Below, in pieces: positions 2,600 through 55,823 of a DNA stretch of 64,000 bases. The stretch lies in contig OZ024750.1 in assembly GCA_964016885.1 (NCBI GenBank), forward strand, positions 54,560,001-54,624,000, written 5' to 3'. Positions within the stretch are counted from its first letter, which is position 1. Each line of letters begins with the position of its first letter. The notes under the pieces were generated by a model. The model saw only the letters and a list, made by a program, of their open reading frames with translations. It was not told the DNA's origin and searched no databases. The position numbers and the translations under genes are program-made. This DNA is from Eledone cirrhosa. Its lineage: Eukaryota.

Positions 2600-3154
2600 A
2601 TAATTTAATATATCTAGTAACATAAGCGCAGAGATGTACGCCAATGCCAGCAAATACACAGGTTATGTCATAGTACCTAGGTGGTTCAATGCAGGAGGAT
2701 GCAGAACAATAATATAAAAGACGTAAAATAAGAAAATAAAAAAAAAATTTTTTTTTAAATTAACTTACTTAAATTTTCACTCCAACTAATTAGTTTCTGC
2801 AAAGGGATAAAGACAGTTATGTAATGAACTGTTGAGAATTTCATTGTGTCATCAGGGAGGTCTATTCTCAGCCAAGTCTCCAGGCAATGCGCGGACACTG
2901 GGGACTCGTATAAAAATAATAATAATTCGGTAAATGGAACAGCTATCGAGGACTGGATTCCAAGCACTGAAAATTCTCGCTGCCACTGGTCAAATGGCCG
3001 ATTCTAAAGAATCAATCACGTGACACTGAGGCTAGTCGGTAGTTCATTACGTAACTGTCTTTATCCCATTGCAGAAACTAATTAGTTGGAGTGAAAATTT
3101 AAGTAAGTTAATTTTTTTAAATTTTTTTTTAAAATTTTCTTATTTTACGTCTTT

Positions 3155-5069: not shown

Positions 5070-5927
5070 CGGCGTAGAACTGTAAAACTAGAAACGTAGT
5101 CTATAGCATAAGATGTACAGAGGGTACTTGCAGAAACATGACAACAACATACATAGGTGAGACAGCTCGTAGCATAGGTGAAAGGATAGACCAACACTGG
5201 GGGGAACTAAAAGGACGAAAAAACGGGTCAGTACTATACGAACATGCTAGACAACAACATGACGGTAACATAGACAACATAGAAATTAGAATAATATCTA
5301 AACATAGAAATGACCCAGCAGATAGGCAAATCAGAGAGGCCAGTGAAATAGAAATTAGAAGACCAAAGCTAAACAGAAAGAATGAGTGGAATACCAACAA
5401 CACCCAAACAAACAACACTGACCTAAGAGAAGTATAAATAAGTAAATAAAATAAGATAAATAAATACATACACAAGCACATAAACACACACTAGTCACCC
5501 AGCAAACACAACACTATACACACTAGTCACACAGCAAACAACACTATACACACACGCAAACGCATGCGCAAAGAAGACAAAATAAAATAAACAAACAAGC
5601 AAATAAATTAATAAATATATAGACAGACTGAATAAAAAATGGCGTAGACATACAACACAACAGGAGGAAAATATAACACCACTGACAATGTTGCAGATGT
5701 GCAACGAAAGATTTATGTAAATTATGTAAACTATATATATGTGTTTATGTCTATATTGTATCTGTGTTATTTTTGACCGTCTGTGAGTCAATGGCAACAT
5801 TGAGGACCGAGTAATCTAGATTACAGATATAAAAGACAGCGAGAAGCGAAAACCAACCAAACAGTGAGTGTGTTCTGTTATTAATTCTGGCAATATTACA
5901 CAAATACGACCCTCCCCAAGTATAACA

Positions 5928-5930
<3 letters not shown>
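5070..5930 (+). mobile_element. Penelope-like element 3' fragment (GIY-YIG endonuclease plus pseudo-LTR)
   Basis: CKTRNVVYSIRC...YIGETARSIGERIDQH...SVLYEHA...RQIREASEI..RPKLN; paralogous to 18439-19340; decayed HHR (CUGACAA..GAAA) near 5677-5720. Confidence 0.85.
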
Positions 5931-6545: not shown

Positions 6546-6593
<48 letters not shown>

Positions 6594-6654
6594 TATATAT
6601 ACATATATATATACACATATATATATATATATATATACATATATATATACATAT

Positions 6655-7333
6655 AAGTATGTATGTATACGTACATACATATATGTATACAGACGTACAG
6701 TAGCATGCATATATATATATATATATACATATATACATACAGGCACACATATATATATGCATGCTACTGTACGTCTGTATACATATATGTATGTACGTAT
6801 ACATACATACTTACATTTAAGTAAGTGCCGTACTAAGAGTGAGAAATGAAATTTCGTTTCATTCTATTCCATTTATCGTTTTCGGTGCGCCTGACCGACT
6901 GAACTCACACGATATGCAAATTAGGCTGCTCAGCCGTTAATTTTCATAAGGAAAGTATATACTTTCGAACGTTCAACCATCTGGCAGAAGGGTATACGGT
7001 GCTGACGATAGCTAACAAGCTTGAAACTAGTACATCGTTCCTGTGTCAGTGTTGAATAAAATGGTGACGTGGTTGCCTTAACACCGTACGGCATAAATCA
7101 GGCTGTCCGTTTGTTTACAAACGAACAAAGCGAACATTATAATAAATGTTCGCTAAACTGATACGTGCATATATATATGTGTGCCTGTATGTATATATGT
7201 ATATATATATATATATATGCATGCTACTGTACGTCTGTATACATATATGTATGTACGTATACATACATACTTACATTTAAGTAAGTGCCGTACTAAGAGT
7301 GAGAAATGAAATTTTGTTGCATTCTATTCCATT

Positions 7334-7336
<3 letters not shown>
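6655..7336 (+). mobile_element. Non-coding HHR-bearing element (family B): 460-nt monomer, ~120-nt terminal direct repeat, inverted 5' segment
   Basis: GTAAGTGCCG at 6821 and 7281 (460 nt apart); about 6655-6760 is the reverse complement of about 7167-7272; homologue at 19482-19998. Confidence 0.8.
6997..7037 (+). ncRNA. Minimal type I hammerhead ribozyme
   Basis: cggug CUGACGA uagcu aaca agcuu GAAA cuag UA caucg. Palindromic ACUAGU stem III, GUA triplet. Confidence 0.8.
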
Positions 7337-7940
<604 letters not shown>

Positions 7941-7943
<3 letters not shown>

Positions 7944-8715
7944 CGAACTAAGGAAAAAATTAGAAATAAGAAGGATCAGATGTTGTTTACTCGAGAGAAG
8001 GCTACGTTGGTATGGTCACGTGATGTGCATGAAAGACGACAGCTGTATAACAATGTGCAAGGCAATAAAGATAGATGGTAGCCACGGAGTAGGCAGACCC
8101 AGAAAAACCTGGGACGAGCTGATAAATTCCGACCTCACACTCTTACACCTCTCCAAGACAATGTCACTGGACCGAGACCTTTGGCGGTACTCAGTAATAG
8201 AGAAGACCCGCCTTACCTAAATACAAAGTAAAACCTACTACAGTCAGTAGGCATCTCTAACAAAATACACCCCCGTCCCACCACCCCCACCCCATCCACA
8301 CCGCCCCTTTCAATGTAAAGTTATGTTGGTGCCACAACATCCAGGCCGAAACAAATGAGATCGTGTAGGTGTCAACAAAAAAAACACACAGTCCACGCTG
8401 TAATGTGGCCGTGTAGGCAACACGGTAAAAACCTCCCAGCCCCACACTGTAAATGTGGTTGGTGTTAGGAAGGGCATCCAGCTGTAGAAAACCCGCCAGA
8501 CAGTCCACGCTGTAATGTGGCCGTGTAGGCAACACGGTAAAAACCTCCCAGCCCCACACTGTAAATGTGGTTGGTGTTAGGAAGGGCATCCAGCTGTAGA
8601 AAACCTGCCAGACAGTCCTATGCGAGCAAGACAATCACTTTTGCATCAAGTGGGAAAACCCCCGTCCAAACCCATGCAAGCGTGGAACACGGACGTTAAA
8701 CGATGATGATGATGA
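7941..8715 (+). mobile_element. RTE LINE 3' fragment (subfamily A) with a ~112-bp tandem duplication in the 3' UTR
   Basis: [26 protein letters not shown]...; tail GGACGTTAAACGATGATGATG; duplicated unit bounded by ACAGTCC (about 8388-8620). Confidence 0.9.
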
Positions 8716-8730
8716 TATATATATATATAT

Positions 8731-8877
8731 ATTTCGTTTCTGAATTTGTTTAGCAAGATTCTTTATCTGAAAACGTGTGTTGAAACCGATATTGTTATAC
8801 TTTGGGAGGGTCATGTTGCCAATAAGAAACACACGCACCAGTTGCTTTCACTTCAATTTATTATAATAAATTTATAA
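8731..8877 (-). mobile_element. Short 3' tail fragment of the PLE family at 14033-19340
   Basis: Near-identical to 14033-14180 and ends at the same nucleotide (...CAGAAACGAAAT). Confidence 0.85.
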
Positions 8878-9399
8878 ACACATATATATATATATATATA
8901 CATATATGGTGGCTGCCAACTCGTTTTCGAGTACGGCCACTACTTTATATCCATGTAGGAGAACCCCTACCGATGCGCTGAACGAATGTGACTTTTTAGT
9001 CCAGCCAGCGACTTGAAAACTCTGGGACAAAGACTACACTTGTGACCATTATTGACACATAGTGCAGGGCCCATGGTACCATGTGATGACAAGTGCAGAG
9101 AGATCTCCAGATATAAAGCAATGCCTGTGCTGTGAAGCTTTTATAGTGACCAAAGGCACTGCACAAAGCCAGTCCCACTCTCTTAACCAAGATGATATTT
9201 ACCAAAAAGAAGAACAAGTCAACATCATTGGATACCATCAGGGTTGCAGGTGTTATATCAGAGTTTTCCTTCTAGAATTCTGCCTTGACAAAGGCTAAGG
9301 GGTCATCTCTCCCGGTGATTTTGGATGGCTATGATATATATATTCATTCATTTCATTTCATTTCATTTCATTTTACGTCCGCTTTTCCCTGCTTGCAAG

Positions 9400-13845: not shown

Positions 13846-13850
<5 letters not shown>
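13343..13850 (+). mobile_element. ~500-nt non-coding HHR-bearing insert in (TA)n
   Basis: Unique sequence between two TA arrays, with an HHR at 13601-13678. Confidence 0.6.
13601..13678 (+). ncRNA. Type I hammerhead ribozyme motif
   Basis: aucaucca CUGAUGA ... GAAA caa caacaaa uug UC ugggugau. 8-bp stem I with one G-U, stem III caa/uug, GUC triplet; stem II irregular. Confidence 0.72.
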
Positions 13851-13934
<84 letters not shown>

Positions 13935-14232
13935 ATATATATATGTGTGTATATATATATATATGTGTGTATATATATATATATGTGTGTATATATATAT
14001 ATATGTATGTATATATATATGTATGTATATATATTTCGTTTCTGAATTTGTTTAGCAAGATTCTTTATCTGAAATCGTGTTTTGAAACCGATATTGTTAT
14101 ACTTTGGGAGGGTCATGTTGCCAATAAGAAACACACGCACCAGTTGCTTTCACTTCAATTTATTATATATTTATAAATTTATAAATTTCTGGTTGGTTGG
14201 TTGGTTCCACAACCAGATAGTTGTTTATATAT

Positions 14233-14277
14233 AGTCATAGTTCTTTCGTCACACACTCTGTGACCTCTTCAGTGACT
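14233..14277 (-). ncRNA. Minimal hammerhead ribozyme in PLE pseudo-LTR (canonical core)
   Basis: aguca CUGAAGA g gucaca gagug ugugac GAAA gaac UA ugacu. Confidence 0.8.
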
Positions 14278-14761
14278 GGGGATTCCTTTCTTTGTTTCTG
14301 TGACTCTCCTTTGTTCTGTCCTACGCCATTTTGTTTCTGTGTGTGTGTTGTGTGCTCAGTCTGCGCATGCGCCACATCCGGGTGTCTGTGTGTGTTCATG
14401 TTCATTTATTTATTTGTTTATTTACATGTTACTGGTTGGTTGTTTGTTCTATGTGTGTGTTTTCATTTTGTCCTTAATTGTAAGTTGTGATGTTGCCTGT
14501 AGCTTGAAACTAGTACATTGTTCTTTTGTCAGTGTTGAACAAAAGGGCAACGATGGTTGCTAAACACTGTACGGCTTAATTCGGGATATTTGTTTACAAA
14601 CAAACCGAGCATTATAATAAATGTTTGGTAAATCCATACGTACATATATATATGTGTGCATGTATGTATATATATATACATACTACTGTACGTCTGTATA
14701 CATATATGTATGTACGTATACATATATATATATATATATGTATAAATATATATATATATAA

Positions 14762-14849
<88 letters not shown>

Positions 14850-14986
14850 ATACTTTGGGAGGGTCATGTTGCCAATAAGAAACACACGCACCAGTTGCTT
14901 TCACTTCAATTTATTATAATAAATTTATAAATTTATAAATTTCTGGTTGGTTGGTTGGTTCCACAACCAGATAGTTGTTTATATAT

Positions 14987-15031
14987 AGTCATAGTTCTTT
15001 CATCACACACTCTGTGACCTATTCAGTGACT
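14987..15031 (-). ncRNA. PLE hammerhead copy with variant core CUGAAUA
   Basis: Same fold as 14233-14277 but with G8>U; identical variant at 19170-19214 (+). Confidence 0.6.
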
Positions 15032-15216
15032 GGGGATTCCTTTCTTTGTTTCTGTGCCTCTCCTTTGTTCTGTCCTACGCCATTTTGTTTCCGTGTGTAT
15101 GTTGTGTGCTCAGTCTGCGCATGCGCCACATCCGGGAGTCTGTGTGTGTTCATGTTCATTTATTTATTTGTTTATTTACATGTTACTGGTTGGTTGTTTG
15201 TTCTATGTGTGTGTTT

Positions 15217-18200
15217 TCATTTTGTCCTTAATTGTAAGTTGTGATGTTGCCTGTTCCACTCATATTTTCTATTTAATTTTGGTTGTAATTCTTTTATGTT
15301 TATTGCCTCTGTAATTTGTCTAAACATTGCGTCTTTTCTGTGTGTAGATTCTATTTTTATTTCTATGTTCTCTAATTTACCCTTATGTTCTATTTTAGCA
15401 TGTTGGTAGAGTACAGATGATTCTTTACTATCTTGAAGGTCTCGCCAGTGTTCATTTATCCGTTCCCCTACACTACGAGCTGTCTCACCTATGTACACTA
15501 TATTTTTGCCTCTACATTGTCCTTCAGTACATCTTATGCTATACACTACATTTCTAGTTTTACAGTTAATATGGGGGCTTATTTTACAGGTTATACATTT
15601 CTTATCTATACATGAGGGTCTTTGGAAAGGGTATGTCTTGCTAATAAGTGTTTTTACGGAGGTACCTGGTCTTTCTACTATCTTAATATTGAGTTTATGT
15701 TTATTTGGGGCCCTTCTAAATTTGTAAGCTAATTCACCTCTAGGGGTTGTATCGATGAACATTACACTCTGGTATTTATTGCTATCATACCATGAGTTTA
15801 TTCTATTAGCCTTATTCCTAGTTCTTTCTAGTCTATTCCAAAATTTGCTCCTATACAAGGGGCAGGTCCCATTTATGTCATTATTTACCATTTTTTCCCA
15901 TTTAGTTCTGGCTCCTCTATACACTCTGATTCTATCTCTCTGATTGTAGCCAGAGAACTGCATACGGTGGATGAAGTGTTGTATGTGTCTCTCTAGTTCT
16001 TCGGGGTTGCACATGCGGGACACGTTTCTCATCACCCGTACCAAATCCGCAATCAGTATGTTGATTTTGGTATGGTCCGAAACGGCCGAGTTTCGGTGGA
16101 TCAGATGTTTGGAAGTCATCGGTTTGGCATAATGGGAATGGAGGATTTGTTTTTTATTATTAATGGTATCTAACCAGAGCTCTGTGTCTAGTACAGGTAA
16201 TCGATGGTTGGGGTGTTTACTTGGGTAGTCTATAGTAACTCTAATGCTCTGGTGGATGGAGTTAGCTATTTGCTGGATGCTTTCCATTGTGTTTTTCTCT
16301 AGTTCCTGACTGTTCTCTAGTGAGGGTGTCTTAACTACGATGTTTATATCATCAACGTAGCGGGAGTACATTATCAGGGTTAAGGGGTCTTCTAATTGTT
16401 CTTTAAGTTTAAGTTTAAGTCTACTGTCCCACCATACCATGAATAAGTTAGCTATGTCGCCTGCAATGCTAACACCAATGGCTGCTCCTTCCTCTTGGAC
16501 ATATGTTTTTCCATTAAATTTGAACATATGTTCCTTAAGGGTTAGTTTTATGCTGGCCCCTACCGCATGTGCAATCATTTTCTTTAGTTCATCGTGGTTT
16601 TCGGGTATCCGTATGGCTCTGGTCCACCCATTCCATCTGTCTGTGTGGGTTTTCTTATTCATTGAGGTAATGGTAGGTGGTCTGCCTCTTGCTGGTCTTG
16701 TAGGGCACAGGTTGCTAAGGTCATATGTGTCTAGGTAATTATTACTATAGGTAAGTTTAAGTAGGAGTCCCAGCTCACTGGTATCAATCCCACGGAACTC
16801 AACATTGCTCTCACTGATCATTTCTACGCATTTCTCCACAGTAAAATCCACGTCAATAGATGGATACAGGGACACAACATCCATACTACCTATTATGCAG
16901 TTTGTTAGGTCCCTAGATCGGTTACTCCCGCCGATTCTGCAGAGGAAATCCTCCGTGCTGTCACATACATCTTGGGACATTTCGATGATGGGGCGTATGA
17001 TCAAGGAGAGGAAGTAGGACAGTCTGTAGTTACTAGCAATGTTAGCTCCACAGACTGGCCGTGTTGGTGGTCCTGCGACAGGGTCACAGCCCGTTTTATG
17101 GTCTTTTCGAAGCCCATACAACGCCGGCACGTCATTGTTCCAGGCCTGGAAGTTGTTGGCAGTCCTTTTGTTGGGCTTCATTATATTCGTCCACATCACC
17201 ATATGGGCATTGAGGGCTTTTTCTCTATCCTCATGCTCCTGTGGTGTTACCTCTCTTGTGTTAGTGATGTGCGGTTGCATTGCCTGGATGTAGTTTGGCA
17301 GGCTGTCAACCGACATTCTGCCAGACTTGTCTGTTGGAAAGCATGCTATCTCTCCATTACGCGAGCGCTGCATGAGCTTACGCAAGCCATTTGCAGATTT
17401 TTCTCCCAGTTGCTGGGCCTCCATTCTATTATGCTTCTTGCTATACTGTTCTATAATATTTCTAAGCTCGGATCTAGCTATACTAAATTGTGCTTTTGTT
17501 TGTTCATCGACCTGCGACGGCAATTGCGTGCGTTTGTTAAATGGTAGAGTCGTGGCGTGGACTCGTCGCAGGTCGAACGATTTATCGGAGGGATTATAAA
17601 ACGTAGAGTTCCAGGCTGCTGCTTTATGTGTACTAGTGCTATTGTTATTGTTAGTTGTGTTGTTTCTATTTCTATTTCCACCAACAGCCTTATGGTTGTT
17701 TCTATGTCTCTCATAGTTACTCCTGTCTCTTTCCACTGGCTCATTGTTGTTATCTACCCTATTTTGTGTGTCTGTGTGTTCGTCTTGGTTATTTTCTTTG
17801 TCCTTAGTCTCCCTTCTCCTTTTAATCCTATTGCTTTCCCTTATTTCTGTGATTTCTGTGCTACTGTCATTACTTGTTCTCTGTGTCTGTGTGTTTGTTA
17901 AGATTGTGGTGGTGGAAGGCATTGAATGTGTGTGGGTTGTTGTTGTTGATGTGTGCTGTTGTTGATGTGTGTTGTTGTCTCCGTGTGCGTTATTATTGTT
18001 GTGTGTGTTGTTTGTGTCTGTGTGTCTGTTGTTGTTTCTGGGTATGTTGTTGTTGGTGTGTGTGTTGTTGTTATTGTTGTTTGTGTCTGTGTGTCTGTTG
18101 TTGTTGGGATGTGTGTTGTATATGTGTATGCGTATATTGTTGCTTTTGTTTTTGTTTTTGTGGCTCCAGTGTAGTTTTGTAAATGATTTTTCTATTTCTG

Positions 18201-18255
18201 ACAGACAACTAATCATATTTACCTTCTTGAATGTCGCAAATCGCGGGGCAGACAT
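15217..18255 (-). CDS. Penelope-like reverse transcriptase plus GIY-YIG endonuclease
   Basis: PTDKSGR, LYGLRKDHK, TRPVC, SMDVVSLYPSI, QEEGAAIG, RYVDD, LPVLD, CxxxxCxxC, NVVYSIRC...YIGET; 1012 aa open. The true reading frame likely continues upstream across a frameshift near 18246. Confidence 0.93.
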   Translation of the reverse strand: MSAPRFATFKKVNMISCLSEIEKSFTKLHWSHKNKNKSNNIRIHIYNTHPNNNRHTDTNNNNNNTHTNNNIPRNNNRHTDTNNTHNNNNAHGDNNTHQQQHTSTTTTHTHSMPSTTTILTNTQTQRTSNDSSTEITEIRESNRIKRRRETKDKENNQDEHTDTQNRVDNNNEPVERDRSNYERHRNNHKAVGGNRNRNNTTNNNNSTSTHKAAAWNSTFYNPSDKSFDLRRVHATTLPFNKRTQLPSQVDEQTKAQFSIARSELRNIIEQYSKKHNRMEAQQLGEKSANGLRKLMQRSRNGEIACFPTDKSGRMSVDSLPNYIQAMQPHITNTREVTPQEHEDREKALNAHMVMWTNIMKPNKRTANNFQAWNNDVPALYGLRKDHKTGCDPVAGPPTRPVCGANIASNYRLSYFLSLIIRPIIEMSQDVCDSTEDFLCRIGGSNRSRDLTNCIIGSMDVVSLYPSIDVDFTVEKCVEMISESNVEFRGIDTSELGLLLKLTYSNNYLDTYDLSNLCPTRPARGRPPTITSMNKKTHTDRWNGWTRAIRIPENHDELKKMIAHAVGASIKLTLKEHMFKFNGKTYVQEEGAAIGVSIAGDIANLFMVWWDSRLKLKLKEQLEDPLTLIMYSRYVDDINIVVKTPSLENSQELEKNTMESIQQIANSIHQSIRVTIDYPSKHPNHRLPVLDTELWLDTINNKKQILHSHYAKPMTSKHLIHRNSAVSDHTKINILIADLVRVMRNVSRMCNPEELERHIQHFIHRMQFSGYNQRDRIRVYRGARTKWEKMVNNDINGTCPLYRSKFWNRLERTRNKANRINSWYDSNKYQSVMFIDTTPRGELAYKFRRAPNKHKLNIKIVERPGTSVKTLISKTYPFQRPSCIDKKCITCKISPHINCKTRNVVYSIRCTEGQCRGKNIVYIGETARSVGERINEHWRDLQDSKESSVLYQHAKIEHKGKLENIEIKIESTHRKDAMFRQITEAINIKELQPKLNRKYEWNRQHHNLQLRTK

Positions 18256-18438
18256 AATACAGATAACTCATCATTATCTATTATTGTGTTACCGTATATA
18301 TTTGTGTTGTTGTTGATGTTGAACTCATCCGTTAATGAAGTGTCGGCCATATTTATACCGTCAACCACGATGAACTGAAGAAAATTATTGCACATGCGGT
18401 AGGGGCCATGGTATGATAGCAATAAATACCAGAGTGTA

Positions 18439-18984
18439 ATGTTCATCGATACAACCCCTAGAGGTGAATTAGCTTACAAATTTAGAAGGGCCCTAAATAA
18501 ACATAAACTCAATATTAAGATAGTAGAAAGACCAGGTACCTCCGTAAAAACACTTATTAGCAAGACATACTCTTTCCAAAGACCCTCATGTATAGATAAG
18601 AAATGTATAACCTGTAAAATAAGCCCCCATATTAACTGTAAAACTAGAAATGTAGTGTATAGCATAAGATGTACTGAAGGACAATGTAGAGACAAAAATA
18701 TAGTGTACATAGGTGAGACAGCTCGTAGTGTAGGGGAACGGATAAATGAACACTGGCGAGACCTTCAAGATAGTAAAGAATCATCTGTACTCTACCAACA
18801 TGCTAAAATAGAACATAAGGGTAAATTAGAGAACATAGAAATAAAAATAGAATCTACACACAGAAAAGACGCAATGTTTAGACAAATTACAGAGGCAATA
18901 AACATAAAAGAATTACAACCAAAATTAAATAGAAAATATGAGTGGAACAGGCAACATCACAACTTACAATTAAGGACAAAATGA
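18439..18984 (+). pseudogene. Inverted duplicate of the PLE GIY-YIG C-terminus
   Basis: Matches the C-terminal 181 aa of 15217-18255 except for three substitutions (P/L, P/S, G/D). Confidence 0.9.
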
Positions 18985-19362
18985 AAACACACACATAGAA
19001 CAAACAACCAACCAGTAACATGTAAATAAACAAATAAATAAATGAACATGAACACACACAGACTCCCGGATGTGGCGCATGCGCAGACTGAGCACACAAC
19101 ATACACACAGAAACAAAATGGCGTAGGACAGAACAAAGGAGAGGCACAGAAACAAAGAAAGGAATCCCCAGTCACTGAATAGGTCACAGAGTGTGTGATG
19201 AAAGAACTATGACTATATATAAACAACTATCTGGTTGTGGAACCAACCAACCAACCAACCAGAAATTTATAAATTTATAAATTTATTATAATAAATTGAA
19301 GTGAAAGCAACTGGTGCGTGTGTTTCTTATTGGCAACATGACCCTCCCAAAGTATAACAATA

Positions 19363-19441
<79 letters not shown>

Positions 19442-19481
19442 TTATATATATATATATTTATACATATATATATATATATAT

Positions 19482-19998
19482 GTATACGTACATACATATA
19501 TGTATACAGACGTACAGTAGTATGTATATATATATACATACATGCACACATATATATATGTACGTATGGATTTACCAAACATTTATTATAATGCTCGGTT
19601 TGTTTGTAAACAAATATCCCGAATTAAGCCGTACAGTGTTTAGCAACCATCGTTGCCCTTTTGTTCAACACTGACAAAAGAACAATGTACTAGTTTCAAG
19701 CTTATTAGCTATCATCAGCACCGTATACCTTCCTGCCAGTTGATTGAACGTCAGAAAGTATATACTTTCCTTATGCATATTAATAATGGCTGAGCAGCCT
19801 AATTTGCATATCGAGTGAGTTAATTGGCCAGGTGCACCGAAAACGATAAATGGAAAATATGAAACTAAATTTCATTTCTCTCTCTTAGTACGGCTGTTAC
19901 TTAAATATAAGTATGTATACGTACATACATATATGTATACAGATGTACAGTAGTATGTATATATATACATACATGCACACATATATATATGTACGTAT
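19482..19998 (-). mobile_element. Second family-B HHR element (~433-nt monomer plus ~85-nt terminal direct repeat)
   Basis: Repeat at about 19482-19566 and 19915-19998; body homologous to 6820-7170. Confidence 0.8.
19683..19723 (-). ncRNA. Minimal type I hammerhead ribozyme
   Basis: cggug CUGAUGA uagcu aaua agcuu GAAA cuag UA cauug. Confidence 0.8.
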
Positions 19999-46195: not shown

Positions 46196-46267
46196 TATAT
46201 ATATATATATATACGAGACTATTGAAGTTTGCTTGAAGCATTGTGGAATTATAAGGTATATTTCTTT

Positions 46268-46542
46268 AAGTCGTTTGGAAGCCTCGACAATGCAGATGGG
46301 TAAATCTCCGCGTAACAAGATCCGGTGGTGGAGAGAGAGATGTGAGTGTACGTTGAGATGTGTGGCGTGTAGAAGAATGTAGGAAAGAGCGTAAAGGATA
46401 AAAATCCTTTAAGCTCTTTCCTACATTCTTCTACACACCACACATCTCAACGTACACTCACTTATATCTCTCTCTCTCCATCACCGGATCTTGTTACCCG
46501 GAGATTTACCCATCTGCATTGTCGAGGCTTCCAAACGACTTT
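46268..46542. repeat. ~135-bp-arm fold-back palindrome
   Basis: AAGTCGTTTGGAAGCC...AAAGGAT | AAA | ATCCTTT...GGCTTCCAAACGACTT. Confidence 0.92.
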
Positions 46543-46587
46543 AAAAAATATATATATATACATATATCATCATCATCATTGTATATT

Positions 46588-47320
46588 TATTGTTATATTT
46601 TGGGAGGGTCATGCTGCAAATAAAAACACACGCACCTGCTGGATTTAACTTCAATTTATTATAAATTTCGAGTTGGTTAGTTTAAAAACTGGATGGTTAT
46701 TTATTTATTGTCAAAGCTGTTTCATCACACATTCTGTGACCTCCTCAGTGGCTCATTTCTTATTTTGTGTCTCTCCTTTGTTCTGTCCTACACCATCTTA
46801 TTTTTGTGTGCTGTGTACTTGGGTTGCACATACATTATATCCAGGTGTGTGTGTGTGTTCTTATTTATTTACTTGTCACTAGTTGGTTGCTTGTTCTATC
46901 TGTGTCTGGGTTTTTTTATTAGTTTGGTTCTTATGTGTCTCTATATGTCTTTATCTTGTCCTTAGTTATTAGTTGTGATGTTGCTATTCCACTAATGTTT
47001 TCTGTTGAATTTTGGTTGGAATTTGTTTATGTTTGTCGCTTCTGTCATCTGTTGGAGCATTGCATCTATTCTGTGTTTGGATGTAATTTTTATCTCTGTG
47101 TTCTCTAATGTGCCCTTATGTTCCATTTTGTTATGTTGGTGAAGTACTAATGAGTTTTTCCTATCTTCTCGCTAGTGTTCATTTATCCTTTCTCCTATGC
47201 TGTCTCGTCTATGTAAAACTATCTTGATATTTAATTTTAGAACCCTTCTAAATCTATAAGTTAGTTTGCCTGCATGTTGTGCTGATAAATATTACACTCT
47301 GGTATTTATTGCTCATACTA
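46588..47320 (-). mobile_element. Old PLE 3' fragment related to 14033-19340
   Basis: Similar pLTR and GIY-YIG remnants; decayed HHR CUGAGGA ggucaca...ugugau GAAA at about 46710-46753. Confidence 0.75.
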
Positions 47321-51399: not shown

Positions 51400-54130
51400 T
51401 CACCACCCATACTCATATCACCTTCAAACCTAACCCCTGTATCCCGTCACCTTCCACCCCCTTTCCTCTCCCCACCACTGAATCTGCACACGCTTTGCCC
51501 AAGCACCTTAACCCCTCCACCTCCGCCCCTTTCACTCCCACACGTCCCTGCACTGTAGTCACCATACCCCAGGACCTACCACTCTCCGAAGATGAGTGCT
51601 CCCTCCTCGTCCGTGGTTTGCGTTTTATACCAACCACATCTACCTGCGACGAGTTCCACACACGTGCCGATATTGAGGGCTTCCGTTGATTAAAGCTGAA
51701 AGATTTTTTTTCACACAGACGGATGACTTCAGTTGCCGGCTACCACATTGGACGCTGAGCTTTGGCCAGTTCAGTACCCTCGACTCCTTTGTTGATACTT
51801 GCCGGCGTACTGTGAATCGGTTCCATTTCCACCAGCATTCTCATCGCTCTAACATCACGCGGGCTGAGCTCTCTGCTCTTCGCAACCTTCGGCATCGCGA
51901 TGACATTGTCATCAAATCTGCTGACAAAGGTGGCACTGTGGTGGTTTGGAACGTTGACCTCCATAGAGCTGAGGCTCTCCACCAGCTTCACAATACCCTT
52001 TTTTACCGCCCTTTATCCTCCGACCCCACTCCTGGCTACCAACAACACGTGTCCTCCACTATCCACCAACTCACCTCCTCTCTCCTACCCCCACAGCCAC
52101 CAACCTTATTGTATGCACCCCTCGCACACCCACCATCTACTTCCTCCCCAAAAAACACAAACAAAATAATCCTGTCCGTCCTATCGTTTCCACGTGCAAC
52201 TGCCCCACCGAGATAATTTCTGAATATTTAGACACCATCCTCGCCCCGTTGGTCAGCAATCTCCCCTCCCACATCCACAATACCAATCATGCCCTTAGAC
52301 TCTTCATCAACTCCTTCTCCTTCCCTCCTGGTCCCACTCACCTTCTCTTTATCCTAGACATTACCTCTCTCTATACCGTCATCCCTCATGATGACAGCCT
52401 CCGCGCTCTCCAACATTTATTTAGATTTACGCCCTACCCCTTACCCCAGCACTACCACCCTTCTCAGTCTAGCTGAGCTTCTTCTGAGCCTCAATGGCTT
52501 TTCTTTTTTGGGTGAATTCTATTAGCAGGTCTCTGATGTAGTGATGGGAACCAGAATGGGTCCAAACTATGCCAACTTCTTTGTTGGCTACGTCGAAGCC
52601 CAGATCTTCTCCCAGTACGCTAGACCAACTCCTGAGCTATACGCTCGTTATATCGATGACTGTATCAGCGCCACCTCTCTATCACGAGAACAGCTCAACT
52701 GTTTTCTTTCTTTTGTCCAATCTTTCCATCCTGCTCTCACTTTCACCGACTCCGTCTGCGATTCTTCTGTTGCTTTTCTAGATATCTCTCTATCTATTAA
52801 TCACTCTCACCACACCCTCTCTACTTCCAACTACATTAAACCAACAGACTCCCAATCTTACCTCGACTTCACCTCTTCCCATCCAACCCACACCAAACAC
52901 TCCATACCCTATTCCCAATTCCTCCGTCTTCGTCGACTCTGTAGCCAGGACAACGATTTCGAAACCCATTCCCTTTGCATGGCTTCCTGCTTCATCCAGC
53001 GTGGATATCCCTCCACCTTGGTCCAAGCTGTTCTCACCCGCACCCGCGAAACAGACCGCACCACAGCTCCTCACCTCACCCTCTCACCTACCACCCCATC
53101 GCCATATCCTCCGTTCCTTCCGTATCCTCTTGTCTGACCCTGTCACTTCTCACTTTTTTCCAAACCCACCCATTACTGCTTTTAAGCGCTCCCGCAACCT
53201 CTTTGTTCGCTGTTCTTTTTCGTCCTCTCCCACAACTCCACCCGGCTCTCATCCTTGTTCCCGTTCCCGCTGCAACACTTGTCCCTTTATTTCCACCCTC
53301 ACCACTCTTACAGGCCCTAATGGATCTTTCCATATCCGCCATTCCTTCACCTGCATATCCACCCACGTTGTCTATGTTCCTCCGGTGTTCCCTGTGCCGA
53401 ACATTTGAATGACATATGACTCAGTTTGGATACTCCTGTCGCCCGTCATTTTTGTTCTCCTGGTCATTCTTCCCTACAGTCCTGGGTGTCCTTTTACATC
53501 ATAGATCACAGGCCTCATGCACCAGGATTGAACAAAGTCTGATTCACCGTCTTGGGTCCTATTCCCCTCTTGGACTCAACTCTAATACCCCGTACATTAT
53601 CATACCCCTAGATTCCTATGGCTTTCTAATGATCATTAGCAGCTTCTCTTACAACTAATACAGGCCGACTATATATGCTCACTCCACTTTTCCCTTCACT
53701 GCTCTGTATACACACATACACACCCTTATATTAACATACTTTTGCTCATAGTCTCATACTTACATGCACGCACACTCCTTTACTCACATATACACACACT
53801 TTTCTTCTTAGCTTCGTACGGACGTATAATAACACACACACACACACACACATGCATACGCATGTGTACAAGTATAGCTCTTTTTACAAAACAGATTTTT
53901 TTTTCTTCCATTTCAGGTAGACGCGCTCCATCATCCACTTTTCTAAAAAATAAATCATACACAAAACGCCAGCACCAACAGTTTTGCAAGAAATGTCAAT
54001 ATGAATTGATCTGTTATCTTTATCTAAAGACATTTTTTCCAATTCCAACTCACCCGTCCCCTCAATCTATCTTGTTTCTCATTCTTTCTTCTGATGAAGG
54101 ACTAGCGTCCGAAACGTTAAGACCCTCTTC
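51400..54130 (+). mobile_element. Decayed Penelope-like element, second lineage (Neptune-like)
   Basis: LSEDECSLLVRGLRFIP, IVIKSADKGG, LDITSLYTVIPH, MGTRMGPNYAN, RYIDD, KPTDSQSYL, IPYSQFLRLRRLCS, CSRSRCNTC, FTCISTHVVY; many frameshifts; HHR in the 3' region. Confidence 0.88.
54087..54122 (+). ncRNA. Minimal PLE-type hammerhead ribozyme
   Basis: ucuu CUGAUGA a ggac uagc gucc GAAA cg UU aaga. Confidence 0.8.
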
Positions 54131-54213: not shown

Positions 54214-54250
<37 letters not shown>

Positions 54251-54423
54251 ATTGGTATATTTACCAACATATGCGTACAGATGTACACTAATGCTAGCAA
54301 ATACATAAGTTATGTCATAGTACCTAGGTGGTTCTATGCAGGGGGATGCAGAACAATTATATGAAAGACGTAAAATAAGAAAATTTTAAAAATTAAAAAT
54401 TAACTTACTTACTAAAATTTTCC

Positions 54424-54503
54424 CTCCAACTAATTAGTTTCTGTAATGGGATAAATATAGTTACGCAATGTAACTATCGAGAATTTATTACGTCATCAGG
54501 GAG
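54424..54503 (-). ncRNA. Type I hammerhead motif (monomer 1)
   Basis: cucc CUGAUGA c guaau...auuac a GAAA cuaauuag UU ggag, with an internal auaguuac/guaacuau hairpin. Confidence 0.75.
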
Positions 54504-54955
54504 TCTATTCTCAGCTAAGTCCCCAGGCAATGCGCGGACACTAGGAACTCATATAAAAATAATAATTCGGTGGATGGAACAGCTAGCGGGGACTGAATTC
54601 CATAGCACTGAAAAAGTTCACTGCCTCTGGTCAAGTGGCAGATTCGAAAGAATCAATCACGTGACACTGAGGCTAGTCAGTAGGAGTGGGGTGGTATTAT
54701 GACAAGAGCCTACTACCACTACAATGAATTAGCAGTGGATTTGGCAAGTTTGCTCAACAAATAAATAATTTGGAGATAAATATAGAGAATTGGTATATTT
54801 ACCAACATATGCGTACAGATGTACACTAATGCTAGCAAATACATGTTATGTCATAGTACCTAGGTGGTTCTATGCAGGGGGATGCAGAACAATTATATGA
54901 AAGACGTAAAATAAGAAAATTTTAAAAATTAAAAATTAACTTACTAAAATTTTCA

Positions 54956-55035
54956 CTCCAACTAATTAGTTTCTGTAATGGGATAAATATAGTTACACAA
55001 TGTAACTATCGAGAATTCATTACGTCATCAGGGAG
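54956..55035 (-). ncRNA. Type I hammerhead motif (monomer 2)
   Basis: Same fold as monomer 1, with stem II guaaug/cauuac. Confidence 0.78.
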
Positions 55036-55823
55036 TCTATTCTCAGCTAAGTCCCCAGGCAATGCGCGGACACTAGGAACTCATATAAAAATAATAATTC
55101 GGTGGATGGAACAGCTAGCGGGGACTGAATTCCATAGCACTGAAAAAGTTCACTGTCTCTGGTCAAGTGGCAGATTCGAGAATTCATTATGATGACAATG
55201 AATTCAAGTGGCAGATTCGAGAATTCATTATGATGACATAATGAATTCTCGATGGTTACATTGCGTAACTATCTTTATCCCATTACAGAAACTAATTAGT
55301 TGGAGTGAAAATTTTAGTAAGTAAGTTAATTTTTAATTTTTAAAATTTTCTTATTTTACGTCTTTCATATATATATATATATACACAACCTTTCGATTAG
55401 CTTTGCAATCGAAAGGTTGTGAGTTCAATTCTCAGACCGGGTGATGTGTTGTTTCCTTGAGCAAGAGACTTTATTTCACAGTGCTCCAGTTTACTCAGCT
55501 GTAGAAATGAGATGATAGGGACTGGGGTCTCTATCATTCCACTGTAAAGTGGTCGTGGAGGTGCCATGGCAAAAAAGCACCCAGCACTCACTGTAAATGA
55601 GGTTGGTGTTAGGAAGGGCATCCAGCTGTAGAAATCAAGCCAGAATCAGTTCCCGTCTCACCCTTGCAAGCAGGGAAAAAGCGGACGTAAAAATGAAATG
55701 AAAAATGAAAATGATATATTTATATATATATGAAAAATGAAATGATGATATATATACACACACATACACATAAATAGATAGATACAGAGAAAAAAATGTA
55801 AAGAACACACAATATTATATACA

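Follow-up and report, generated by a model that had tools for sequence, protein, structure and literature searches.

We analysed a window of 64,000 nt from Eledone cirrhosa (GenBank assembly GCA_964016885.1, contig OZ024750.1, positions 54,560,001 to 54,624,000 of the forward strand); "the window" refers to this whole stretch. An insertion without an open reading frame, B1, occupies positions 6654–7336 between two (TA)n microsatellites, and two further copies of the same family (family B) lie beside a Penelope-like element (PLE) of a different family (family A). The features are as follows.

6548–6653, no strand: left (TA)n target microsatellite.
6654–6761, minus strand: inverted arm of B1, bounded on the outside by the short 3′ end, which abuts (TA)n.
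6749–6761, no strand: inversion junction, a 13-nt palindromic overlap of the inverted and direct arms, covered by both matches.
6749–6813, plus strand: upstream partial unit with the 5′-truncated end, equal to 7209–7273.
6814–7273, plus strand: complete 460-nt unit in PLE phase (lag 460), with the tail-homologous start, structured core, hammerhead, hairpin, and AT-rich end in this order.
6826–6833, plus strand: 5′ strand of a long-range helix with 7086–7093, predicted by RNAalifold, enclosing the hammerhead domain.
6914–6921, plus strand: invariant octamer ATGCAAAT, within the invariant block 6912–6922.
6951–6966, no strand: perfect, invariant 16-bp palindrome in the invariant block 6945–6966, found only in the two B copies.
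6981–7049, plus strand: type I hammerhead motif, from a descriptor match, family variants, and conservation statistics. Stem I is 6997–7001/7033–7037 with a predicted outer extension, 7002–7008 belongs to the core, stem II consists of 4 bp that follow a U.U pair, and stem III of 1 bp with the palindrome 7026–7031.
7130–7153, plus strand: conserved 9-bp hairpin with a TATAATAAA-like loop region, supported by covariation.
7161–7273, plus strand: AT-rich palindromic end segment, in which the 5′ and inversion ends and also the short 3′ end fall.
7274–7336, plus strand: 63-nt tail at one end only, a copy of the unit start (61/63 identical to 6814–6876).
7337–7941, no strand: right (TA)n target microsatellite.
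14035–19360, no strand: ORF-bearing PLE complex of family A, facing B2 and B3 tail-to-tail with (TA)n in between.
14501–14724, plus strand: third, partial copy B3, which begins within hammerhead stem II and stems from a duplication.
19479–19998, minus strand: second copy B2, an upstream partial unit of about 87 nt and one unit of 431–433 nt, with the short end.

The direct segment of B1 (6749–7336) is 588 nt long and corresponds to 1.28 units at lag 460. Positions 6749–6854 and 7209–7314 are identical over 106 nt, and the whole redundant segment (6749–6876 against 7209–7336) is identical at 126 of 128 positions, with mismatches at 6855 and 6859 only. These values reproduce the exact 460-nt period with terminal redundancy proposed in an earlier note made from the sequence alone; the partial-tandem structure stands, and the monomer count given there, 1.26, is corrected to 1.28. 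The same note described an inverted 5′ copy of about 105 nt, which we found as an exact 108-nt reverse complement (6654–6761 against 7166–7273, 108/108) overlapping the direct arm by 13 nt. Read in the phase beginning at 6814, B1 comprises the last 108 nt of the unit in inverted orientation, the last 65 nt, one full unit, and the 63-nt tail. A target-site duplication is unreadable inside the (TA)n microsatellite. On both sides of B1, RTE-type fragments follow the TA flanks, and the window as a whole is rich in (TA)n and RTE-type fragments.

B2 consists of 1.2 units, with about 87 nt redundant, and has neither the tail nor an inverted copy. Its core is identical to that of B1 in 299 of 360 aligned columns (83%), and its hammerhead core begins at 19718. 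The unit length is 460 nt in B1 and 431–433 nt in B2, and the GC contents of the cores are 0.40 and 0.36, respectively. B3 lies in a 1298-bp inverted duplication with 18407–19702, in which 11 columns differ and an interrupted TA spacer is shared. The three B copies therefore record two insertions, and B3 is not independent. The earlier note mentioned neither B3 nor the position of B2 next to an ORF-bearing PLE. B2 and B3 were duplicated together with family A and the TA spacer, most likely from a read-through transcript of family A.

Family A carries a frame at 15217–18267 on the minus strand (1016 aa from stop to stop) in which an RT, a C-x4-C-x2-C linker, and a GIY-YIG-type end can be recognized by eye; Pfam gave only a weak RVT_1 match on this frame. 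Such a linker is of the Neptune/Nematis type as described in PMC8557442. The element is 5′-truncated, with a frame break near the N-terminus. Among the best 120 of 272 matches (6,012 candidates), the closest protein was an Octopus vulgaris hypothetical protein (65%), and the next matches listed had 32–52% identity. An ORF-bearing PLE thus co-occurs with family B in the window, as autonomous-type PLEs do with retrozymes. The whole region 13850–19998 is a compound insertion composed of a tailed pLTR (97% identical to the other), the partial B copy, TA, a pLTR with the 5′-truncated ORF, a short inverted ORF piece, an inverted 0.95-kb arm, TA, and B2. Its two identical arms share a change in the hammerhead core; in the tailed pLTR copy (14272), the hammerhead is intact. 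B3 and the tailed pLTR join at 14501, at a point that is exactly within the palindromic stem II of the B hammerhead. The short end and tail of family A (14091–14120 on the minus strand and 14035–14090) lie in a short open frame whose initial ATG is within the pLTR. Such a frame would be expected if the ORF of the next unit began with the tail; this one gave no homologue (best E 4.4).

The tail-to-tail arrangement of B2 and B3 with family A, co-duplicated with the TA spacer, would fit a family that spreads by 3′ transduction with family A, and the RTE-type fragments around B1 would fit a passenger of an RTE LINE; in either case B would have no cis-signals of its own. However, B1 is free of family A sequence and has an inversion and a tail of its own; where the two families share a locus, B runs antisense to A; and the covarying RNA structure described below lies on the B strand. 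We consider spread of this kind very unlikely.

Copies of B outside the window were reached through sequencing runs. Four of 23 runs were compared with one period (6877–7336) at 80% likeness, and 7169–7336 was skipped as a repeat. B matched 3,714 of 16,285,364 contigs in run X1, 52 of 762,587 contigs in run X7, and 41,689 of 12,467,656 raw RAD reads in run X21. None of the 10,118,568 contigs of run X4 matched B despite a word share of 0.36. Run X7 is small and its library is not on record, and it was not counted as RNA. Summed over contigs, the depth reaches up to about 2 million; this value and the share of RAD reads are measures of abundance and not of copy number. These results indicate that family B is abundant and comprises several subfamilies. 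The B insertions in the window carry one hammerhead each, and no locus with two B hammerheads was seen, with 7169–7336, where head-to-tail joints would lie, masked in the runs. Joints of the opposite-strand type in X21 were rejected as genomic inversions, as they lie mostly at or beside read-end sites and have a depth of 0 in the contig runs.

No ORF occurs in the family B unit, which includes neither the RT nor the GIY-YIG ORF of an autonomous PLE. A tblastn search for coding remnants in B1 and B2 with PLE homologues (the best 120 listed) gave a best match of E = 0.007 over 29 aa and a next of 0.045, and the absence of an ORF reported in the earlier note is thus upheld. We also examined whether B might be the pLTR of family A. 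The only likeness was a 36-nt stretch, AC-rich with TATAATAAAT, at the corresponding place after the hammerhead in relatives of family A (E 0.06), which was equalled in 1/200 and 6/200 mononucleotide shuffles, and this identification was rejected. The stretch may be taken as a lead to the clade of the partner and nothing further; no partner PLE sharing the 3′ end of B was found in the window.

A related explanation derives B from an autonomous PLE, either as its pLTR end or as a rare copy with an internal deletion, so that the abundance and conservation would be those of the parent. Most minimal hammerheads of animals are single motifs in truncated PLEs, as described in PMC4209133, the 36-nt stretch resembles the same position in family A pLTRs, and the search masked 7169–7336, with the loose ends of contigs taken from the entries listed (399 further entries exist). 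Nevertheless, in each of the two copies, which differ by 17%, the tail leads into the core with no ORF, and a helix between tail and core, with a double change, is common to both. All six X1 loose ends listed read as diverged B sequence and none as an ORF, and likewise none of those listed in X7 reads as an ORF. The X1 loose end at 6902 runs on into the tail of B itself (29 contigs), and the X21 depth on the plus strand is continuous across 6877–6922 (about 1,060–1,370). Two groups of X21 loose ends (6939 and 7098) are mixed and lie at read-end sites. An origin as a piece of an autonomous PLE consequently appears improbable.

In regards to the ribozyme, a strict type I descriptor gave six matches in the window and one in 30 block-shuffled windows (0.03 per window). 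Two are in B (7002 on the plus strand and 19718 on the minus strand), two in family C, one in the family A pLTR, and one after a decayed PLE. Both B matches contain the core boxes CUGAnGA, GAAA, and UH together with stems I, II, and III, and the hammerhead that the earlier note placed in the 460-nt monomer is confirmed at this level. Cleavage is predicted after GUA, between 7032 and 7033. The place of the G10.1–C11.1 pair, highly conserved in hammerheads according to PMC4209133, is taken by U7009.U7022 in both copies and did not vary among the 40 of 59 substitution entries listed. The single base pair of stem III with its palindromic loop is a form described as requiring a dimer (PMC4209133).

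Rfam at the gathering score returned no hammerhead across the window, with none of the six descriptor matches recovered, and at E ≤ 10 it gave 107 matches over 6600–7400, none of them a hammerhead; these sub-threshold matches were rejected because nearly all were AT-rich and of the miRNA type. The predicted ribozyme assignment is one that depends on the descriptor and on conservation, without support from Rfam. The lowest-energy fold of 6981–7049 sequesters the hammerhead core (−19.5 kcal/mol, 2.1 below the hammerhead-compatible fold at −17.4 kcal/mol), and the circular fold does likewise. Windows of 61–66 nt around the hammerheads folded no better than their shuffles (z 0.5 to −1.3). The gain from cofolding a dimer was small (−42.7 vs −39.0 kcal/mol) and was left out of the argument. 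The exact B hammerhead pattern occurred in no stretch of the viral contigs and in none of the metagenome contigs. A relaxed pattern matched 8 and 1 loci, which we attribute to chance: none of the nine had stem II, similarity to B, or similarity to a PLE protein.

We compared variation along the family using the differences between B1 and B2, 40 of 59 substitution entries, and 8 indel entries. At least 73 of 289 positions vary among the entries listed. None of the 14 hammerhead core positions varies among them (nominal P 0.015), and none of the 26 positions of the core, stem II, and loop III (nominal P 0.0003); the P values are nominal because the sites are not independent. Two other blocks of 21–22 nt are as invariant as the ribozyme among these entries. 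The invariance shows signs of purifying selection on the putative ribozyme, as the earlier note had suggested from two copies. B1 and B2 differ within the ribozyme at N7 (7006) and loop II (7016), as had been noted, but also at stem I position 7036, which still pairs as G.U. In stem I, G6999T and T7035G occur at matching levels, namely in 72 and 73 contigs of X1 and in 4816/10092 vs 5046/11437 and 408/7753 vs 349/7859 reads of X21. We read this pair as a probable flip from G.U to U.G, with the phase deduced from frequency.

All eight variant entries listed for the 18 stem positions of the hairpin at 7130–7153 keep the pairing, three of them as double changes (7130/7153, 7133/7150, and 7136/7147). 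The 7130/7153 change is on one molecule in B2, and the other two would be paired likewise. By this comparison of sequences, the predicted hairpin is the clearest covarying element of family B. The RNAalifold helix 6826–6833/7086–7093 has 8 pairs, one of which is changed on both sides between the two copies. The core (6812–7165) gave folding z-scores of −5.4 on the plus strand and −2.9 on the minus strand (60 dinucleotide shuffles), and B2 gave −4.5 in the sense and −3.9 in the antisense orientation. The G.U-type changes and the z-scores point to the plus strand of B1 as the probable RNA strand. In the unconstrained fold, several variants outside the hairpin and helices break predicted pairs, and beyond the covarying helices the fold of family B is a prediction.

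The invariant blocks 6912–6922 and 6945–6966 are possible promoter or protein-binding sites. The octamer ATGCAAAT is a possible promoter element of the snRNA type, put forward here as a candidate lead only. Newt satellite 2 has an snRNA-type promoter.

A short 3′ end (about 7265–7273) recurs in B and may be extended by the 63-nt tail. On the 5′ side, the partial unit varies in extent, and an inversion may precede it. In the two insertions, the 3′ ends without the tail lie at about 7265 and 7273, 8 nt apart, and the third end is the 63-nt tail, which is seen once, on B1, and is absent from B2 and from the inverted arm. TA-like microhomology could favour the short end. Family A has short ends at the probes 19334 (plus) and 14871 (minus) and an end longer by 56 nt at 14120 and 8818 (both minus). 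Family C is ORF-less and is represented by 54250–55367 and 2600–3154, with the sense on the minus strand and a type I hammerhead that has a stem II region of 51 nt; in both of its two insertions, the inverted arm has the short end and the direct arm has a tail of about 115 nt. The locus 54250–55367 contains two complete hammerhead motifs 532 nt apart and is a true dimer, the two-hammerhead arrangement of retrozymes that B does not show in the window. The redundant segments of B2 and B1 overlap (about 7161–7265 and 7209–7336 in B1 numbering), so that the different permutation point that the earlier note assigned to B2 is not borne out; the ends fit the fixed short-end/tail pattern common to families A and C. 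This pattern, which for B is based on two whole independent insertions, is better explained by fixed RT starts with a variable 5′ extent, a putative PLE signature.

Published PLE insertions are described as partial tandems with an inverted 5′ copy, a one-sided tail, and a (TA)n bias (PMC8557442), and in a rotifer PLE the inverted pLTR is reported to overlap the direct pLTR by 15 bp in a palindrome (PMC3846280). The tail has been described as the interval between two internal RT start sites, with both strands cut and extended (PMC11167929). B likewise has the partial tandem, the inverted 5′ copy with a palindromic overlap, a tail at one end, and a (TA)n target, and its arms, tail, and (TA)n flanks bear out the PLE-type partial tandem and 5′ inversion noted earlier. 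Slippage in the microsatellite or an assembly artefact in AT-rich DNA might also give redundancy and inversion, as AT-rich palindromic sequence makes up 65 of the 128 redundant nt and PLE-type structures are described as troubling assemblies (PMC8557442). This origin is extremely unlikely given that the 63-nt tail is unique sequence (61/63), that B2 and family C independently show the same plan, and that the hammerhead descriptor is rarely matched by chance. We regard trans-mobilization of B by a PLE reverse transcriptase-endonuclease as highly probable. The broader reading, that family B is an ORF-less, PLE-mobilized retrozyme-like element with an RNA template and a predicted hammerhead, is nearly as probable.

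We compared family B with known systems. Similar to animal non-LTR retrozymes as described in PMC7229834 and 10.64898/2026.07.22.740005, B is ORF-less, a few hundred nt long, strongly folded, and present in high copy, with a type I hammerhead, a short palindromic helix III, a core GC of 36–40% (below 45%), and co-occurring PLEs. The unit of 460 nt exceeds the range of 170–400 nt given in PMC7229834 and is within the range of 51–972 bp given in 10.64898/2026.07.22.740005. Unlike non-LTR retrozymes, B was seen as dispersed insertions of 1.2–1.3 units with one hammerhead and no dimers or multimers, although both sources are described as counting solo copies within such families. B also has a PLE tail and an inversion, unlike retrozymes as described there; the terms "inverted", "tail", and "target site" do not occur in PMC7229834. 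We assign B to the retrozymes provisionally, on features of its sequence.

In regards to Neptune/Nematis endonuclease PLEs, as described in PMC8557442, PMC3846280, and PMC11167929, B shares the partial tandem, the inversion with palindromic overlap, the one-sided tail, (TA)n, and a hammerhead upstream of the 3′ end, but it has no RT or GIY-YIG ORF and its redundant part excludes the hammerhead. Its tail of 63 nt compares with 30–40 nt in those elements and 56 nt in family A. Non-autonomous Chlamys elements such as MRC1 of Chlamydomonas are also described as ORF-less, with pLTRs, and as moved head-to-tail via PLE machinery (PMC8557442). According to the same source, the 3′ end of those elements is in general also that of an autonomous family, and hammerheads are mostly absent from their clade, whereas B has a hammerhead and no partner within the window. 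The conserved boxes, the palindromic 15.2–16.2 region, and the predicted dependence on a dimer are shared with the PLE hammerheads of minimal form or small helix III described in PMC4209133, from which B differs by U.U in place of G10.1–C11.1. The 4-bp helix II and long predicted helix I of B are nearer to the canonical metazoan type I form.

Among the papers listed in a literature search, none dealt with an octopus ribozyme, judged by title and the start of the abstract. The main text of a 2026 O. vulgaris repeat annotation, which reports 31 recently active Penelope-like families, has no mention of hammerhead, ribozyme, or retrozyme. Family B may already have been entered in repeat libraries such as Repbase or Dfam. 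We conclude that B is a new example of the known retrozyme kind and not a new class of element.

We propose the following route for B. A master locus with two or more units would be transcribed, and the hammerhead would excise a unit-length RNA. Cleavage would probably occur as a dimer because stem III is a single pair with a palindromic loop. The unit RNA would likely be re-joined as a circle, and an end-to-end template jump would be equivalent. The PLE protein would then cut (TA)n DNA and begin reverse transcription internally, at the short end (about 7265–7273) or at the tail end (7336). Since PLE RT starts internally, fixed ends are compatible with a circle. Copying would cross the intact cut site and run slightly beyond one unit, and the inverted arm, joined at the 13-nt palindrome, would arise either from self-priming after fold-back or as a second cDNA made from the other target strand. 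Daughters with a single hammerhead, such as B1, would mostly be dead ends. In a rotifer PLE, pLTRs are reported to suffice in cis for integration in trans (PMC3846280).

The copies of B span the cut site, and no pile of ends at 7032/7033 was seen among those listed in the runs, which implies a template that was either uncut or re-joined. A template spanning the cut site together with apparent selection for a cleavable core is most simply explained by cutting and rejoining. Given mobilization by a PLE, we slightly favour a circular or end-jumped template.

The template is the only point at which a non-autonomous mini-PLE copied from linear, uncut transcripts of a tandem master differs from this reading. 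Such transcripts would start near 7161–7170, about 25–30 nt past a TATA-like loop, and the hammerhead would be retained because it serves some purpose other than circularization, for example folding or the trimming of read-through RNA. The 5′ end of B2 (7161-equivalent), the inner end of the B1 inversion (7166), and the inversion end of one X7 contig (about 7177, read from a loose end) cluster, a single RNA of about 6701–7336 with two priming sites would explain all of B1, and both tail mismatches fall within its last 22 nt. The clustering of 5′ and inversion ends at 7161–7209 and the mismatches confined to the tail mildly favour a linear transcript from a tandem master. Uncut RNA is described as the dominant substrate of an anole PLE (PMC11167929), and PLE start sites are placed in the upstream pLTR (PMC8557442). 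Moreover, the hammerhead is reported to be dispensable for PLE insertion in vitro, with no RNA-seq ends at its cut site (PMC11167929), and this dispensability favours a linear uncut template. Of nine Xenopus retrozyme dimers, eight are reported not to have cleaved (10.64898/2026.07.22.740005). However, purifying selection on the catalytic core is not accounted for by a linear template alone, and the clustering is based on three events and could reflect AT-rich microhomology or pausing of RT at the 7130–7153 hairpin. We consider a linear template a real possibility, somewhat on the doubtful side.

Within the circular or end-jumped reading, a more specific and rather speculative form is that B is a cephalopod circular-RNA retrozyme, in which PLE RT copies the circle from two fixed internal starts and the 7130–7153 hairpin, in the same AC-rich/TATAATAAAT context as in family A pLTRs, acts as a PLE-recruiting cis-signal. 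We consider this form unlikely. If true, it would provide a naturally paired retrozyme–PLE system in which insertions record the mechanism, and it would require an active U.U-closed variant of the hammerhead.

Arguments on which enzyme mobilizes animal retrozymes are still based on co-occurrence and phylogeny. PLEs have been called "a strong candidate" (PMC7229834), and the mechanism of mobilization is stated to remain to be elucidated (10.64898/2026.07.22.740005). The value of B is sequence-level evidence of PLE machinery inserting retrozymes, in the form of an ORF-less hammerhead unit with a PLE-specific tail and inversion, near an ORF-bearing PLE and an ORF-less family with the same ends. 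Thousands of B copies are likely, and the genome-wide spread of their ends can decide between a circular and a linear template. Furthermore, the short structured RNA of B is suited to direct use in the in vitro PLE assay already available.

Other elements were observed in the window. A minimal hammerhead without loop III (54087–54122) lies downstream of decayed RT and GIY-YIG-type frames, which represent a second PLE at about 51.7–53.4 kb. Diverged relatives or end fragments of family A occur at 5078–5930, 46548–47318, and 8715–8878, and each ends in AT-rich repeats. A 296-bp near-perfect palindrome (90%) is located at 46257–46552 beside one of these relatives. Positions 821–2494 contain a LINE RT frame of 557 aa from stop to stop (Pfam RVT_1, E 3e-30), which is preceded by a 54-nt tandem repeat of its own 5′ junction (712–919).
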